Shown piece by piece: positions 33,170-47,918 of a stretch of 64,000 nt of DNA (its first letter is position 1; every line of letters begins with the position of its first letter). This stretch comes from a plasmid: sequence record AP025967.1; one strand, 5' to 3'. Both the position numbers and the translations under genes were made by a program. The notes below the pieces were generated by a model. It saw only the letters and a program-made list of their open reading frames with translations, had not been told where the DNA came from and made no database searches.

Positions 33170-33385
33170 TAGCGAAAGTAGGAGTAATTCACAGTTTTCA
33201 TTGTTTTAAAATTTTTCTCTTTGTTATTAATAGATAATTTCGATATATCATATCTATCCCAAAAGATAAGCTCTAAGGGTCGTTGTAAAAAATGATAAGT
33301 TAAGCTTATAAAAATAATCAAAGCTATAAGCACACCACAAGGTATATAAAATCTTTTAAGTTTGTAAAAAGGTTTTTTTATTGTT
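33170..33385 (-). pseudogene. 5' remnant of a 42798..43562-like gene (IKKPFYKLKRFYIPCGVLIALIIFISLTYHFLQRPLELIFWDRY...) with ATA in place of the start ATG
   Basis: About 190 bp near-identical to 43440-43562, then unrelated sequence and a stop after ~70 codons. Confidence 0.5.
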
Positions 33386-33391
33386 TATCCT

Positions 33392-34393
33392 TTACTCTGC
33401 TTTAAGCTCTCCACCTTTAACCACAAGTCCATTAGAGTCTATAATTACTTCTACTCCACCTGCTTTAATGATAACACAATCAGGTTTTGCATTAATAATT
33501 GTTTCTCCTACCTGTATAGTCGCTTCGCTATCGGCTTTTAACTCATGAATAGTTTTTGCATAAGTTGTGATATTATCAGCTACCATGCTTGTATTTTTAT
33601 CACTTTCAAATCCTATGGATTCATTACTTGTAAAAAGAATATTATCTTTGCTTTTATAATCCATCTCTTTCTCGCTTAACACTTGCATTTTATCACTGAC
33701 ATTAATACCATAATGCCCCTCAACCACTTCCTTTTTATTCCCCTTCACATTTCTTATTTCATCTTTATGTATAATAGTATTTTGATTTGCACCTATTTCT
33801 ATGTCTTTGTTTTCTCCTACAAACTCATGAGAGTTTTTAGCCACTCTTACTTTATTATCTACTCCTACATTTAAGGTATTGCTTAATCCTACTATGGTAT
33901 CTTTAGATAAGCCTACATTAGTTAAGTATTCTCCTCCTACATTGACATTTTTAGCTAAGTCTATGGTTTGAGTATGAACCTTTTTAATCCTTTCATTATA
34001 AATTCCATCCACTATAGAATCTTTATCATTTAAAATTCTTTGAGTGAAATTATGTTGTACTAATTCATCATAATCCTTTTGGGCTTTTAAATAAATTTGT
34101 TCTTTATCTTTTATATTTGAGAGGGTAAGTTCATTATAACCTTCTTCATTAACACCTATGGTTTTAGAAGAAAGAGAAGTTTGGTGATCATTAAAAGGAA
34201 GATTTACTAAACTTGGATTAGCCCCATTATACAAACTAGAGCTCACATAAGGTTTATCTATATCATCATCTAAAAAAGAAATAATCACTTCATCTCCTAA
34301 CTTTCTTTGATAAGGGCTTTAGTGATTTTAAAGGGTAGGGGATTTGAAGTAGAATTTAAAATATCAAGACTCATATAAGAATTAAGGGACATT
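33392..34393 (-). pseudogene. vgrG: vgrG remnant: the first ~31 codons of vgrG fused out of frame to its last 298 codons, an internal deletion of ~1.5 kb
   Basis: 33337-34299 is near-identical to 47864-48826 (the encoded 298 aa are identical to the VgrG C-terminus). 34300-34407 is near-identical to 50342-50449, which carries the vgrG start and upstream region. Confidence 0.7.
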
Positions 34394-34536
34394 GAAGATC
34401 CTTTTAGGGGTTGAGTTTATGGTGTTTATAATTTGGTATAAATCCACTATGTTTTTAATTTTTATATTTATTATTTTAACACAAATAGTCTAAATTTGAG
34501 TAGAAAAAAGGAATGGCTTATTTTTGTTATTAAAAT

Positions 34537-35175
34537 CTATTTTTTATCTAAATTTACTTCTATGATATTAGATTCTTTTTCGCTGTTTTGTGTATTTTCT
34601 AAACGCAATTTTATTTTATTTGCACCCATGGGAGTTAAAATAGTAAAATATCTAGTATTATTTTCATAAAAACCCCAAATTTCATCAAATTCCAAATAAT
34701 TTGCTAATCCATATTCTTTAAACTTACATTCTTTATAGATTGATTTTAAAAATTTTGGCACTTCATTAATAATAAAAAGTATTTTGATTTTTTCTTTTTG
34801 AGAATTAATATCCAATTCTTTAATCAGATTATTTTGATATTCTTGCTTAATTATTTCTATTATTTTTTTATTATCACAATTTTTTAAATCATTAAGATTA
34901 ACATCCATTTCTTTTTTTAACTCTAATTCTTGAGGAAAATAATTTGTATTCTTATAATTAGAAGCTTGTGGTAATAATATATTTAATTGTTCATCACTTT
35001 TAAAAATTAATTTCGCTATATTCATAATTTTAATATTTAATTCTAATATAGCGTAAAAATCTTTTTTAGAAAAAATTTTATCTACACCTTTTTTCATATT
35101 TACAATATCTAAATTTTCATCAGATAAAAATTCTATAAGTTTATTTAAAAATATAGGTTGAGGAAGCATTACCAC
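34537..35175 (-). CDS. hypothetical 212-aa protein
   Basis: ORF. Overlaps the upstream gene by 7 nt. Confidence 0.35.
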   Translation of the reverse strand: MVMLPQPIFLNKLIEFLSDENLDIVNMKKGVDKIFSKKDFYAILELNIKIMNIAKLIFKSDEQLNILLPQASNYKNTNYFPQELELKKEMDVNLNDLKNCDNKKIIEIIKQEYQNNLIKELDINSQKEKIKILFIINEVPKFLKSIYKECKFKEYGLANYLEFDEIWGFYENNTRYFTILTPMGANKIKLRLENTQNSEKESNIIEVNLDKK

Positions 35176-35519
35176 CCTTTAAGCTCTAAGCTTTCAAGCT
35201 CTTCTAAACTCATTGCTCTAATTAAAATCCTTTCTTCTGATTGAATTAAAGAAAAATCTTGCAATTTCTCTAAAGCTTCTTTATACTCTAAATACCCCAA
35301 AGGCTCATCTTTGCTAATGCTAAAAAAACTCAGCCTCCATTTGGTTTCTTTATCTTCATCATCTAGTTCAAAATTTTCCCAAGGTTTTTTAAAAAGAATA
35401 GTATCTGTATCTTCACTTAGGGTGAAATTTATTATTAACCCATCTGGTGTTTCATAAAGTTTAGGCATAGCTTCATAAGCTTCTTCCCAACGTCCTTGTA
35501 AAAGTTTTAAATCTTCCAT
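35169..35519 (-). CDS. hypothetical acidic 116-aa protein (immunity-protein-like size and composition)
   Basis: ORF only. Confidence 0.35.
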   Translation of the reverse strand: MEDLKLLQGRWEEAYEAMPKLYETPDGLIINFTLSEDTDTILFKKPWENFELDDEDKETKWRLSFFSISKDEPLGYLEYKEALEKLQDFSLIQSEERILIRAMSLEELESLELKGW

Positions 35520-35603
35520 AAATTTTTCCTTAAATATAAAATGAAATTATAACTAAAAATCTTTTTATATTAAATTGCAAAATTTTTTATAGCTTTTAGT
35601 CTT

Positions 35604-46653: not shown

Positions 46654-46987
46654 TTTCTATCCTTTTTAATTTGCAAAGAATAAGTAAAATAATACCAATT
46701 AATTTCCTAGCGAGAAGGATAATTACTAATAAGTAAAGTGTTACTAATAATCCATATTTAACAAAAAAATATCCACCAAAAAATATTATGATTACAATCA
46801 TACTATCTGGAATAAGCAATAAATATCCAAAAGTATCATATATCCAATCTATAATTTTACTAGAAACACCATATTTACTTTTGCAATTTTTACATTTTAT
46901 TTCTAATTTGCCCGAGAATATATTCCAAATATTTTGTAATTTATTGATTTTTGTTTTACAAACCTCACATTCTTTATAAAGCGACAT
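46643..46987 (-). CDS. zinc-ribbon (CxxC...CxxC) membrane protein, 114 aa
   Basis: CEVCKTK...CKNCKSK followed by two TM helices. Confidence 0.35.
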   Translation of the reverse strand: MSLYKECEVCKTKINKLQNIWNIFSGKLEIKCKNCKSKYGVSSKIIDWIYDTFGYLLLIPDSMIVIIIFFGGYFFVKYGLLVTLYLLVIILLARKLIGIILLILCKLKRIENER

Positions 46988-47078
46988 TTATCTTATTCCT
47001 TTACCATTTTCTACAATTTCTTGCCTTTTTCTTAAAGCTTCTTTTATACTTTCTTCAATGTTAATAGTGGTATTGTTT

Positions 47079-47381
47079 TCATTTACATTCATCTAAAGTC
47101 TTTTGAATTTTATTTATTGTATCTTCTAGAAAAGGTGATATATCTTTACGATAATTCCTAAAATTTTCTTTTAATGTTTTATCAAAAAGTTTTGAGCCAT
47201 CTGGATCTAAGTTAATAAATATAGTATAATTTCTCTTTATTTGATTAAATATTAAGTTTCTATTTTCAAAAGAGCACAATTGATTATTATGAAGTAAAAA
47301 AGAGCTCGGAATTGATATTTTTAAATAAATTGCTGCATTTTTATATTCAGTTCTCTTATCCAAATAACCTATATTATCCAA
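47079..47381 (-). CDS. hypothetical 100-aa protein
   Basis: ORF only. Confidence 0.3.
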   Translation of the reverse strand: MDNIGYLDKRTEYKNAAIYLKISIPSSFLLHNNQLCSFENRNLIFNQIKRNYTIFINLDPDGSKLFDKTLKENFRNYRKDISPFLEDTINKIQKTLDECK

Positions 47382-47506
47382 ATAATCATAAATTTCTTCA
47401 TAATGTTTTATAAAATTAAGCTCTTCTTCAAAAATTTGTCTTTCTAAATCTCTAGTTGATGCTCTTAAGTTTAGATATTTTTGTTTTTCATTTGAGTTTA
47501 AATCAC

Positions 47507-47898
47507 TTATGAAATTAAGGTAACGAAAAAAATTCGTTCACCACCAACTAAAAAGTAAAATGTATTAGCGTAATTTTGAAGAGAAGCTTGGTAATATCTA
47601 TCCTCAAATCCAAAGAATTTAGCCACCTTAAAATCAAAAATAGCCTTTTGCATTTTTATATTTAAATCTTTAAAATCTTCTAATTTTGGCTGATGATCAT
47701 CTACAATTTTAATCATGTCTTTAGGACTTGGGTTTAAAGTTATTTTTTCAAAATTTCTAAATTCTTGTTCTTTTTCAAAGCGATGATTTGTTTCCCAATA
47801 AATCGTATACAAAGGAGAATAAAGTAATTTTGCAAGCACAGCAAGTGCTATAATAATCACTATACAAGGTATATAAAATCTTTTAAGTTTGTAAAAAG
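47507..47898 (-). CDS. paralog of the 42798..43562 family immediately downstream of vgrG (IKKPFYKLKRFYIPCIVIIIALAVLAKLL...). The start codon is unclear, with ATA where the family ATG would be
   Basis: The frame is open from 47898 and shares its first 12 residues with the family. The C-terminal part is unrelated. The annotated GTG at 47860 may be the functional start. Confidence 0.4.
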
Positions 47899-47918
47899 GT
47901 TTTTTTATTGTTTATCCT

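Follow-up and report, generated by a model that had tools for sequence, protein, structure and literature searches.

For C. jejuni, published work already describes a variable effector region that lies between vgrG1 and an orphan vgrG2 (Robinson 2021, PMC8285248; Robinson 2022, PMC9676060; Katz 2023, PMC10374022); Robinson 2021 defined this region and made the PAAR-like and AHH predictions in it. Katz et al. (PMC10374022) mention a module of a TM protein and an amidase-like effector, and according to the abstract of a 2026 bioRxiv preprint no C. jejuni T6SS cargo effector had been characterised by then. While the general idea of a vgrG1-vgrG2 effector region is already known, the reading of its unannotated genes is new, and it brings in a large, uncharacterised, recombination-shuffled toxin family with a tail that looks like a zinc protease.

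The region analysed here, positions 33170-47918 of a 64,000-nucleotide window of plasmid AP025967.1, shows 99.9% identity to the C. jejuni megaplasmid AP025997.1. It lies where the CJPI-1 island and the T6SS megaplasmids carry their cargo (Robinson 2021, 2022; Katz 2023), after tssF-tssG-vgrG1 and before a second vgrG. Both have AHH, PAAR-like and DUF4299 components, the strain 488 order of DUF4299, 210-aa gene and vgrG2 recurs here, and pCJDM202, which Robinson et al. compared, covers 85% of the region at 99.9% identity. In contrast to the described regions, vgrG2 is internally deleted here, the strain 488 cargo (Tox-REase-7, TNT, ankyrin) is absent from the region, and the bulk consists of the unannotated 1411-aa family and membrane-anchored genes, listed as "hypothetical" in the Robinson and Katz papers. 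In our view the stretch is probably the variable cargo region of a T6SS carried on a Campylobacter plasmid, a recombination hotspot between vgrG1 and a wrecked vgrG that keeps toxin genes together with their protective partners and the remains of older cargo.

The gene order is TssF, TssG, VgrG and then the cargo, all on one strand, with vgrG1 as the upstream boundary and the deleted vgrG copy as the downstream one (Table 1). The first-pass annotation had placed all genes from vgrG downwards on the same strand, and every ORF of at least 75 aa within 33392-53211 is indeed on the minus strand, except for a single 91-aa ORF embedded antisense. Genes are tightly packed, and neighbours overlap or nearly abut (254/1411, 17 nt; AHH/Imm11, 4 nt; 114/358, 11 nt; 116/212, 7 nt). 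As had also been noted, few products have a recognisable domain: only VgrG, AHH and Imm11 passed Pfam cut-offs, DUF4299 stayed below its own, and an NCBIfam search of the region's products returned zero matches. The repeats at 32450-33057 and 14581-14838 had been called MITE-like; they contain perfect promoter hexamers as well as hairpins and resemble small-RNA genes more closely.

Table 1. Features of the T6SS cargo region (aa, amino acids; positions are those of the window)
Feature	Position	Strand	Basis
TssF	51490-53211	-	strong Pfam match
TssG	50585-51493	-	strong Pfam match
vgrG1, full length, 838 aa	47919-50435	-	Pfam Phage_GPD 7e-20, Phage_base_V 3e-9, Gp5_trimer_C 3e-19
260-aa N-terminally membrane-anchored gene, frameshifted	47079-47860	-	alignment with intact copies (L003, L002); blastp; hydropathy
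114-aa protein, N-terminal CxxC...CxxC, two predicted TM helices	46643-46987	-	sequence, hydropathy
358-aa protein, N-terminal signal-like hydrophobic segment	45577-46653	-	sequence, hydropathy
337-aa ORF, displaced 5' fragment of second large effector	44561-45574	-	protein and DNA comparison
289-aa membrane-anchored protein, orphan immunity-like	43646-44515	-	hydropathy, locus comparison
254-aa protein, membrane-anchored by one TM helix behind a K/R-rich N-terminus	42798-43562	-	sequence, hydropathy, comparison
1411-aa mosaic effector candidate	38579-42814	-	family alignment, identity profile, profile search
1411-aa protein, TM helices (residues 115-155)	42350-42472	-	
1411-aa protein, conserved recombination segment (residues 335-445)	41480-41812	-	
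1411-aa protein, beta-sandwich (residues ~660-740)	40595-40837	-	
1411-aa protein, middle domain (residues ~745-977)		-	
1411-aa protein, C-terminal HExRH zincin-like domain (residues ~998-1411)	38582-39823	-	HECRH at 38816-38830
287-aa soluble protein, candidate cognate immunity	37703-38566	-	locus comparison
Tyrosine recombinase 3'-end remnant	37410-37527	+	DNA comparison with integrase 31043-31981 (integrase: Pfam)
79-aa ORF	37005-37244	-	gene call in some assemblies only
259-aa specialised effector, PAAR-like N-terminus and Tox-AHH	36167-36946	-	Pfam AHH 3.8e-18
188-aa Imm11 (DUF1629) protein	35604-36170	-	Pfam Imm11 1.6e-21
DUF4299-like 116-aa gene and 212-aa gene	34537-35519	-	Pfam DUF4299 6e-4, below cut-off
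vgrG2, internally deleted, downstream boundary	33326-34413	-	DNA self-comparison; Gp5_trimer_C 3.8e-20
54-aa stub of 254-family gene, downstream of vgrG remnant	33169-33333	-	protein comparison

We asked whether T6SS-negative replicons also keep these genes. Among the 72,556 plasmids of PLSDB, an identical set of 38 Campylobacter plasmids carried both the tssFG core (38/38) and DNA of the region, and no plasmid other than these tssF/tssG-bearing ones carried any of this DNA. The core matched with at least 99.4% identity (full length in 37), and coverage of the region ranged from 8 to 100%. Module counts among the 38 were 22, 31, 7, 28 and 32, with the 114-aa/358-aa pair on 28 plasmids and the DUF4299-like 116-aa gene with its 212-aa neighbour on 32; on NZ_CP149885.1 the flanks are the same and the cargo is entirely different. 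The region is modular, differs between plasmids and is physically linked to a conserved T6SS core.

Two toxin modules look intact, the PAAR-like/AHH nuclease with Imm11 and the 1411-aa protein followed by its 287-aa partner. The rest consists of orphans anchored in the envelope and of wreckage, namely a frameshifted gene, an effector 5' fragment, an integrase stub and a vgrG remnant. The regular alternation of large toxins and small proteins proposed in the first-pass annotation was overstated, because only these two toxin genes look intact.

Judged by their domains, the AHH nuclease and Imm11 form one textbook effector/immunity pair. The AHH domain scored 65.9 bits (Pfam cut-off 22.3), which places the 259-aa protein in Tox-AHH (PF14412), and the [AGT]HH catalytic motif is kept as THH (residues 164-166, 36449-36457). 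Imm11 scored 77 bits (cut-off 22.1), its start overlaps the AHH stop, and it is the predicted immunity protein to the nuclease. The nuclease domain is C-terminal and the N-terminal region is Cys/His-rich; residues 1-151 gave no Pfam match at all, the PAAR and DUF4280 models included, even at E ≤ 5. The label "PAAR-like" rests on the iterative analysis of Robinson 2021 (PMC8285248), which lists 49% similarity between CJ488_0990, with its predicted novel PAAR-like domain, and A0W69_08930, the AHH protein of pCJDM202, and on the 33% identity of residues 24-120 to a stand-alone 116-aa protein that adjoins VgrG loci in Helicobacteraceae. The neighbouring 79-aa ORF matched no Pfam or NCBIfam family. 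On the other side of Imm11, the 116-aa product reached 20 bits against DUF4299 (PF14132; cut-off 31), and PGAP labels proteins identical to it "DUF4299 family". The conserved 116-aa/212-aa pair lies immediately upstream of every vgrG2 or vgrG remnant examined, and on pAR-0411 it precedes both vgrG copies; an adaptor or chaperone role for it is speculative.

The 1411-aa family was found only in Campylobacter and a few Helicobacter. In Helicobacteraceae MAGs, homologues come straight after VgrG, and in C. subantarcticus they occupy tandem cassettes downstream of VgrG; both termini are polymorphic, and nested truncated forms occur. The identity profile marks the gene as a mosaic from three sources: nt 1-600 show 97-100% identity to a C. 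subantarcticus gene, nt 600-1800 99% to a 602-aa gene of pAR-0411, and nt 1200 to the end 93-100% to the 1297-aa gene of pAR-0411. The N-terminus of that 1297-aa protein is also found in the displaced 337-aa ORF (96% identity over 333 aa). Residues 224-332 of this ORF correspond to the conserved recombination segment (63% identity to residues 335-444 of the 1411-aa protein), and the frame stops five codons later. The resemblance extends to the DNA, where 41481-41798 and 44577-44891 are 79% identical; a second duplication joins 33247-33382 and 43440-43563 (84.6%), so the nested duplications reported earlier are real. Together, the mosaic gene, the displaced fragment and the differing cargo between the same flanks support repeated acquisition and reshuffling of cassettes, as the first-pass annotation had proposed. 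Neither the 1411-aa protein nor its 287-aa partner passed a Pfam or NCBIfam cut-off or had a single-sequence PDB match; that the 1411-aa family and this partner represent undescribed effector and immunity families, as had been suggested, is plausible. The middle domain had no detected relative outside Campylobacterales. A Tlde1 (DUF2778) L,D-transpeptidase-like identity for residues ~780-935 was not supported: there was no Pfam match at E ≤ 10 and no profile PDB match, and the candidate "SNGSIG" segment is deleted in the Helicobacteraceae homologues.

The C-terminal HExRH domain looks like a zinc protease and has weak minigluzincin-like matches. H1329/E1330/R1332/H1333 and Y1391/Q1394/P1395/E1397 (YxxQPxERD) are invariant from Campylobacter to Helicobacter, and E1397 is, by its conservation, a candidate third zinc ligand. 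A profile of the family matched projannalysin (4JIX) with E=0.0027, and 4JIX was also the top Foldseek match of the structure model (E=0.065, prob 0.92; model poor, pLDDT 41), the moderately confident part of which has strands followed by the motif helix. The SprT-like match of the 1411-aa protein was sub-threshold (18.1 bits, cut-off 25.6). The DUF6782 (putative metallopeptidase) cut-off was passed by remote relatives only; SprT-like was also matched among these, and one relative carries a fused TNT toxin domain. As neither AlphaFold model was good (mean pLDDT 41 and 43), our reading of the unannotated genes draws only on sequence and context. In 9/9 full loci checked, a protein related to the 287-aa product comes after the HExRH domain, be that domain fused or separately encoded; these are 403-459-aa proteins with ~27-30% identity to it, and their divergence tracks that of the toxin. 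The 287-aa product, which had no TM segment in the hydropathy scan, is therefore a candidate cognate immunity protein for the HExRH domain.

Membrane-anchored or secreted small products had also been claimed, and the hydropathy scan predicts an N-terminal anchor or signal sequence in the 260-aa (117+100), 114-aa, 358-aa, 289-aa and 254-aa products. The 358-aa protein is probably exported, given its signal-like segment, and had no Pfam or NCBIfam match; the 114-aa protein had no Pfam match above cut-off, and its homologue (71% identity) lies just upstream of an 867-aa effector at another locus, L011. Homologues of the 289-aa protein directly follow 540-aa short effectors in C. subantarcticus (78% identity), and another (60%) follows a 491-aa gene at L011. 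The 254-aa protein, 94% and 98% identical to its counterparts L009_253 and L011_254, is a candidate immunity or accessory protein; its family directly follows vgrG or a vgrG remnant in most loci examined, and the 5' end of the gene is repeated at 33247-33382 and 47865-47909. The 260-aa gene is its paralogue, with 66-77% identity to 276/277-aa genes that precede effectors in C. subantarcticus.

Could the 254-, 260-, 289- and 287-aa proteins be adaptors or chaperones that load or stabilise effectors with TM helices? The 254 family stands between vgrG and the effector in most loci examined, sometimes with overlapping reading frames, and is absent at the Helicobacteraceae loci, whose effectors are without the TM-containing N-terminal region. 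Robinson 2021 (PMC8285248) speculated on adaptor roles for the unknown proteins of the vgrG1-vgrG2 region, and the soluble 287-aa partner could be a chaperone. However, a single TM helix follows the K/R-rich N-terminus, so the bulk of such proteins is predicted to be periplasmic, where it could not chaperone a cytoplasmic substrate; orphan copies such as the 289-aa gene persist without an effector, as is typical of immunity genes; and Pfam searches of the region detected none of the known T6SS adaptor families DUF4123, DUF1795 and DUF2169. We consider a loading role in place of immunity unlikely.

The conserved, co-diverging downstream partner also bears on whether the 1411-aa protein is antibacterial at all or is an anti-eukaryotic or host-interaction factor, or a surface protein outside the T6SS. 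The C. jejuni T6SS has been linked in the literature to host-cell phenotypes and haemolysis, zincin proteases are frequent among host-targeting toxins, and the antibacterial activity of the 1411-aa protein is a prediction. Nevertheless, such a partner is the hallmark of a producer guarding itself from its own antibacterial toxin, orphan immunity-like genes lie all around the gene, and members of the family are linked to vgrG in two genera, which makes a host-directed role quite improbable.

Given the damage to several genes (the frameshifted 260-aa gene, the 337-aa fragment, the vgrG remnant), part of the locus may be inert. The first cargo gene had been read as separate 117-aa and 100-aa genes; it is a single 260-aa gene split by a T8-to-T7 change at 47526-47532. 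The expected vgrG and recombinase remnants were both recovered. vgrG2 is vgrG minus 1516 bp: 114 bp of the 5' end (the promoter-proximal region and codons 1-31; 34300-34413 versus 50343-50455, 98.2% identity) are joined out of frame, near codon 537, to 974 bp of the 3' end (33326-34299 versus 47853-48826, 99.6%). Its only open frame, a 298-aa ORF with a GTG start (33392-34288), encodes VgrG1 residues 541-838 (298/298 identical). The recombinase remnant is 81.5% identical to 31813-31930, the 3' end of the intact integrase, and the 54-aa stub matches the 254-aa protein (residues 17-40) at 79% identity and a 70-aa stub of L011 at 94%. Relatives of 491, 540 and 602 aa elsewhere look truncated as well, the 602-aa tail being the 3' end of a 260-family gene. 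Still, it is very unlikely that the region is mostly a graveyard of decaying cargo hitch-hiking on the plasmid with little present function, since the 4.2-kb 1411-aa ORF is intact and its exact protein recurs in 34 blocks of a public assembly collection (23 contigs read), the AHH gene, with its catalytic motif, and the Imm11 gene are intact, the genes are tightly coupled, and the invariance of the HExRH residues across genera implies purifying selection.

For an active cargo region, we propose that the PAAR-like N-terminus would mount the AHH protein on the tip of VgrG and that the protein would degrade the DNA of the recipient cell, with Imm11 shielding the producer. The 1411-aa protein would be a VgrG-dependent cargo effector whose HExRH domain may work as a minigluzincin-like zinc peptidase in the target cytoplasm and be neutralised by the soluble 287-aa protein encoded just downstream, although such a peptidase could act in self-processing instead of as a toxin. 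A second functional layer may consist of its TM-containing N-terminal region and the membrane-anchored, probably periplasm-facing 254-, 260- and 289-aa proteins, which could either protect against an activity aimed at the membrane or envelope or handle the TM helices of the effector. Diversity would arise where homologous recombination finds one of three conserved handles (the 3' end of vgrG with the 254-family 5' end, effector residues ~335-640, and the integrase gene); exchanges there would trade modules, leaving fragments stranded and immunity genes orphaned.

This logic resembles that of Rhs and CdiA orphan-toxin arrays and of T6SS orphan immunity arrays, for example the auxiliary clusters of Vibrio cholerae. 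As in these arrays, recombination takes hold at a segment that is conserved within a large polymorphic toxin, the source is mosaic, other species included, and displaced older modules survive as fragments and orphan immunity genes. Nothing but the recombination logic is in common with Rhs/CdiA-type toxins, a class that was not supported here: the 1411-aa protein has no YD/Rhs or FHA Pfam domains, and Rhs/YD repeats and the VENN and PxxxxDPxGL demarcation motifs are absent. What is stranded here is an N-terminal fragment (337 aa) instead of a C-terminal tip, and both termini are polymorphic. The HExRH domain in turn shares an HExxH helix after a small beta-sheet with minigluzincins (projannalysin 4JIX, selecase 4QHH) and DUF6782/SprT-like zincins, and HExRH is invariant in all homologues. 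It differs in its size (~400 aa versus ~110 aa in minigluzincins), in its HExRH motif with the invariant YxxQPxERD ~60 residues downstream, and in being fused to, or encoded beside, a T6SS cargo protein. In Pseudomonas aeruginosa, VgrG2b carries a metallopeptidase effector domain fused to VgrG, acts in the periplasm and has a dedicated immunity gene. A single-sequence PDB search found no sequence similarity of the HExRH protein to VgrG2b or other zincin-type T6SS toxins; an HExxH zinc-peptidase-type domain, T6SS delivery and an immunity gene are nonetheless common to VgrG2b and, by prediction, to the 1411-aa protein. Unlike in VgrG2b, the domain is carried by a cargo protein, and its 287-aa partner is without an export signal, which suggests that its target is cytoplasmic.

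The window is Campylobacter T6SS megaplasmid DNA with ∼25% G+C along its whole length; T6SS-positive strains and megaplasmids also bearing tet(O) have been reported among clinical and poultry isolates. The region between full-length vgrG and a vgrG remnant (33170-47918, the cargo) is covered completely, at 99.9% identity, by the C. jejuni plasmid AP025997.1 and is also matched by pCJDM67L (NZ_CP014745.1) and pCJDM202 (NZ_CP014743.1). All substantial open reading frames (ORFs) from 33392 to 53211 lie on the minus strand, in line with the single strand that the first-pass annotation had stated for the genes from vgrG onward, and they are closely spaced, four of the junctions showing overlaps of 4-17 nt. 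Self-BLAST of the window recovered each structural element that had been listed. Among all products, only VgrG, AHH and Imm11 passed the curated Pfam and NCBIfam cut-offs, in agreement with the earlier remark that most products have no recognisable domain, and the products described there as membrane-anchored or secreted are consistent with N-terminal anchors or signal-like segments predicted by hydropathy in five products. The alternation of large toxin-like and small proteins is less regular than claimed, as no more than two of the toxin genes appear intact. The entire window gave no matches in Rfam (gathering threshold) or in a tRNA scan.

Coordinates of features in the window, with their matching segments
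Feature	Coordinates	Strand, position or matching segment	Evidence
TssF	51490-53211	same strand as cargo, upstream	strong Pfam match
TssG	50585-51493	same strand as cargo, upstream	strong Pfam match
VgrG, full	47919-50435	same strand as cargo, upstream	strong Pfam match
1411-aa gene	38579-42814	centre of module C	
AHH and Imm11 pair (module D)	35604-36946		Pfam
vgrG remnant, first part	33326-34299	47853-48826 (vgrG 3′ end and 66 bp downstream)	self-BLAST, 99.6% identity
vgrG remnant, second part	34300-34413	50343-50455 (vgrG 5′ end)	self-BLAST, 98.2% identity
Intact tyrosine recombinase	31043-31981	plus strand, beyond vgrG remnant	
Integrase stub	37410-37527	3′ end of the intact tyrosine recombinase; between 287-aa gene and AHH module	self-BLAST, 81.5% identity
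Duplication in cargo	41481-41798	44577-44891	self-BLAST, 79% identity
'MITE-like' repeats	14581-14838; 32450-32713; 32754-33057	plus strand	
Other duplications	3896-4533; 1-140; 2191-2322	4518-5155; 1011-1150; 5875-6006, respectively	

Among the 72,556 plasmids of PLSDB, tssF-tssG and any part of the region were confined to exactly the same 38 Campylobacter plasmids. The tssF-tssG genes were at least 99.4% identical (full length in 37), and 8-100% of the region was covered at 93-99.9% identity. The HExRH domain with the 287-aa gene (genes are named here by product length) was found in 22 of the 38, AHH-Imm11 in 31 (71 places), contiguous 289 and 254 in 7, 114-358 in 28 and DUF4299-212 in 32. 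As this DNA occurs only on plasmids bearing tssFG, the housekeeping genes shared with T6SS-negative strains, which the first-pass annotation had named as evidence against its reading, were not what this collection contained. The T6SS-negative island CJIE3 of strain RM1221 retains vgrG fragments and some relatives (Robinson 2021, PMC8285248), a finding in keeping with the decay of an island and not with housekeeping genes.

The 1411-aa gene was found by sliding identity to come from three sources. Its nucleotides 1-600 are, along with the upstream 254-aa gene (94% amino acid identity), 97-100% identical to C. subantarcticus, nucleotides 600-1800 are 99% identical to a 602-aa gene of the C. coli plasmid pAR-0411, and from nucleotide 1200 to its end the gene matches a 1297-aa gene of that plasmid at 93-100% identity. 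With the N-terminus of the pAR-0411 1297-aa protein the 337-aa ORF shares 96% identity, and it ends five codons past the shared segment, and the end of the 602-aa form consists of the last codons of a 260-family gene. The order in pAR-0411 is vgrG-257-224-602-114-358-1297-287-AHH onward, and in the window vgrG-260(frameshifted)-114-358-337|289-254-1411-287-AHH onward; the two arrangements would interconvert through recombination in the conserved effector segment (residues ∼335-640). In NZ_CP149885.1 the same flanks (vgrG1 on one side, vgrG remnant, 70-aa stub and integrase on the other) enclose wholly different genes. The three-source gene, the fragments and the swapped cargo bear out the earlier interpretation of repeated acquisition and reshuffling of cassettes, and we consider it highly probable that 33170-47918 is a T6SS cargo region shaped by recombination. 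On a C. coli chromosome (CP154440.1, locus L010), an uncalled segment at 14571-15994, downstream of a short-form effector cassette, is 98% identical to window 37838-39261 and contains the 3′ end of the 1411-aa gene and most of the 287-aa gene; it appears to be a further stranded piece and, as such, would show plasmid-chromosome exchange. The recombination handles seen in this locus offer a route for the exchange of weaponry among Campylobacter plasmids, islands and even species (C. jejuni, C. lari group), and help to interpret strain-to-strain competition and T6SS cargo typing.

Since both ends of vgrG are matched at 33326-34413, the remnant is vgrG minus 1516 bp internally; a stop directly past the deletion junction ends the reading of codons 1-31. 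The long matching segments are 974-bp direct repeats, 14,527 bp apart, that flank the entire cargo, and homologous recombination between them would remove all cargo in one step and restore a single vgrG. Two island ends may have been joined in tandem, to judge from the integrase stub together with the intact integrase that lies past the vgrG remnant. Also beyond the remnant (∼28000-32300, gene content as annotated in comparison loci L001 and L007) are a WGR-domain gene and, preceded by a small ORF, the YafQ-family toxin of a type II toxin-antitoxin system; this set with the recombinase was described for CJPI-1 and pCJDM202 (Robinson 2021, PMC8285248). The 5′ end of the 254-aa gene was found again by self-BLAST after both vgrG copies. 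There (33382-33392 and 47909-47919) ATA replaces the ATG start codon of the 254 family at 43563-43573, and the 260-aa gene must therefore begin at a downstream GTG, without the basic N-terminal tail. This gene, the first after vgrG, had been read as separate 117-aa and 100-aa ORFs; comparison with other assemblies corrects this to a single gene split at 47526-47532, where the window and AP025997.1 have T7 and the others T8, a difference that may reflect phase variation, a genuine pseudogene or an artefact of sequencing. The other duplications of the window, including a ∼620-bp tandem repeat at 87% identity, are unrelated to the cargo.

The exact 1411-aa protein occurs in 34 blocks of the public assembly collection (23 contigs read). 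Its relatives, all annotated as hypothetical, are restricted to Campylobacter (C. jejuni, C. coli and the C. lari group) plus a small number of enterohepatic Helicobacter, in clusters of hundreds to more than a thousand member sequences each; when the whole protein, its middle domain or the N-terminal 480 aa served as query, word-based searches gave Campylobacter proteins, a single one from Helicobacter valdiviensis and nothing else. The homologues form a nested size series: short forms (∼491-540 aa) have residues 1-482 in common with the 1411-aa protein, ∼602-aa forms share it to ∼residue 625, 867-946-aa forms end at residue 977, and long forms (1297-1411 aa) have an extra C-terminal domain of ∼430 aa. 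Where a short form precedes it, this domain has its own overlapping ORF (381-424 aa, 29-32% identity). Proteins of 749-770 aa in Helicobacteraceae MAGs, directly after VgrG, contain only a beta-sandwich, the middle domain and the C-terminal domain. In all forms compared, including those of Helicobacteraceae, H1329, E1330, R1332 and H1333 (HExRH) are invariant, and likewise Y1391, Q1394, P1395 and E1397 (YxxQPxERD in the wider alignment).

Searching 1.84 billion representatives with a HMMER profile gave 204 relatives. The remote members of this set have matches to Pfam DUF6782 ('putative metallopeptidase'), SprT-like and M76, and a TNT toxin domain is present in one. Neither the single 1411-aa protein nor a 6-sequence C-terminal profile had a useful match in PDB sequence searches, and Pfam at E ≤ 10 on four segments of the protein gave nothing above cut-offs; among the PDB searches only the more diverse Campylobacter and Helicobacter profile (A7) reached the minigluzincin projannalysin (PDB 4JIX, E = 0.0027), over the strands and the motif helix. 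The same structure was the top Foldseek match of the AlphaFold model of the C-terminal domain, a poor model. In AlphaFold2 the C-terminal 431 aa (12 sequences) reached a mean pLDDT of 41.4 and the middle 340 aa (22 sequences) one of 43.5, with moderate confidence limited to the HExRH core and one beta-sandwich, so that the Foldseek matches (minigluzincins, transthyretin-like) are no more than hints. With both structure predictions unsuccessful, the functions assigned to genes other than AHH/Imm11 depend on conservation, gene neighbourhood and weak remote similarity. From the invariant motif, the DUF6782 and SprT-like relatives and the 4JIX matches, we read the domain as a putative minigluzincin-like zinc peptidase. 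A resemblance of the middle domain to Tlde1/DUF2778 was considered and rejected: neither a family model nor the PDB gave a match, and conservation was lacking in the putative catalytic segment.

A related soluble protein of 287-459 aa comes after the HExRH domain in every full locus examined (the window and comparison loci L009, L010, L011, L012, L014, L015/L017, L016, L018 and L026). Its divergence parallels that of the domain, the pattern of a putative cognate immunity gene, and no export signal was found in the 287-aa family, so the target of the putative peptidase probably lies in the cytoplasm. The 254-aa gene and the start of the candidate effector gene overlap by 17 nt, and the 254 family (254, 257, 259 and 253 aa; more distantly 260, 276 and 277) stands directly after vgrG or its remnant in most Campylobacter loci checked. 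In these proteins a single TM helix comes after a basic N-terminus, a topology that should place their bulk in the periplasm. They co-occur with the TM-containing N-terminal region of the effector (helices at residues 115-155), which Helicobacteraceae effectors do not have. We favour immunity against an envelope-directed activity of that region; the main rival explanation is that the 254 family handles the TM helices of the effector. Homologues of the 289-aa protein come after the 491/540-aa short forms; in the window this gene follows just a 337-aa fragment and is thus an orphan. In C. subantarcticus (L009, CP007773.1, 507-13399), three tandem cassettes (277-540-285, 276-540-285 and 253-1386-413) follow VgrG and abut T6SS core genes, which is the cleanest view of the repeating unit of anchored protein, effector and partner.

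Taken part by part, the 1411-aa protein is probably a T6SS substrate, and its C-terminus is possibly, at a little under even chances, a toxic peptidase that the 287-aa protein counteracts. An immunity role for the membrane-anchored proteins is somewhat more doubtful. More tentative still is the whole picture of a Campylobacterales-specific cargo effector, in which a TTR-like beta-sandwich, a middle domain and a ∼400-aa minigluzincin-like HExRH peptidase would act against a cytoplasmic target and be neutralised by a soluble immunity family (287-459 aa) not recognised before, and to which Campylobacter would add a TM-containing N-terminal delivery/toxin region with its own membrane-anchored, probably periplasm-facing immunity family. 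If true, a single polypeptide would bear two toxic activities, matched by two immunities. The mutable catalytic motif (H1329/E1330/H1333) and the predicted partner make the family a testable candidate.

A second candidate pair, ready-made for testing, is module D. The 259-aa protein has a C-terminal Tox-AHH nuclease domain (65.9 bits, Pfam; THH at residues 164-166), and the overlapping Imm11/DUF1629 gene scores 77 bits; together they make a textbook effector/immunity pair. The Cys/His-rich N-terminus had no match in Pfam, and the protein had no useful PDB match by sequence; the N-terminal region is 33% identical to a stand-alone 116-aa protein adjoining VgrG loci in uncultured Helicobacteraceae. 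CJ488_0990, with a predicted novel PAAR-like domain, is 49% similar to the pCJDM202 AHH protein A0W69_08930 (Robinson 2021, PMC8285248).

The 'MITE-like' repeats of the first-pass annotation turned out differently. They are three copies (89% and 67% identity) of a ∼270-300-bp unit, each with a perfect or near-perfect TTGACA-N17-TATAAT promoter, then a segment with UCACCUCCUUUCU, which resembles the 16S rRNA 3′ end (anti-Shine-Dalgarno); further downstream are hairpins whose differences among copies seem compensatory. Small regulatory-RNA genes of one family are a more likely identity for these repeats than MITEs. Rfam had no match for them, and RNAalifold on the three copies found only 2 compensated pairs. 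A promoter/terminator scan (147 found, 125 expected) was uninformative in such AT-rich DNA except for the perfect hexamers inside the repeats.

Tox-REase-7, AHH, TNT, ankyrin, PAAR-like and DUF4299 genes in the region, and a comparison with pCJDM202, were described by Robinson 2021 (PMC8285248), and the work on the variable region was extended by a genus-wide study (Robinson 2022, PMC9676060) and Katz 2023 (PMC10374022); the region was not analysed in the megaplasmid paper of Marasini 2020. A 2026 preprint tests two Tox-REase-7 effectors; its abstract states that until then none of the cargo effectors of the C. jejuni T6SS had been characterised. In Robinson 2021 and 2022, Katz 2023 and the preprint, a possible relation of the Z_00322/Z_00323 module of Katz 2023 to the 1411-aa family aside, this family, the HExRH domain, the 287/415-aa partners and the membrane-anchored families are unannotated and the mosaic breakpoints are not described. 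Loci of this type were known before in the organism, and no new kind of system is revealed; what appears to be new is the map of its anatomy, a mechanism of recombination for which the breakpoints give support, and the testable prediction of a hitherto unrecognised zincin-type effector that, together with an immunity family of its own, would be confined to Campylobacterales. Although the repeats and demarcation motifs of Rhs/CdiA orphan arrays are absent here, the recombination logic of the region is like theirs.
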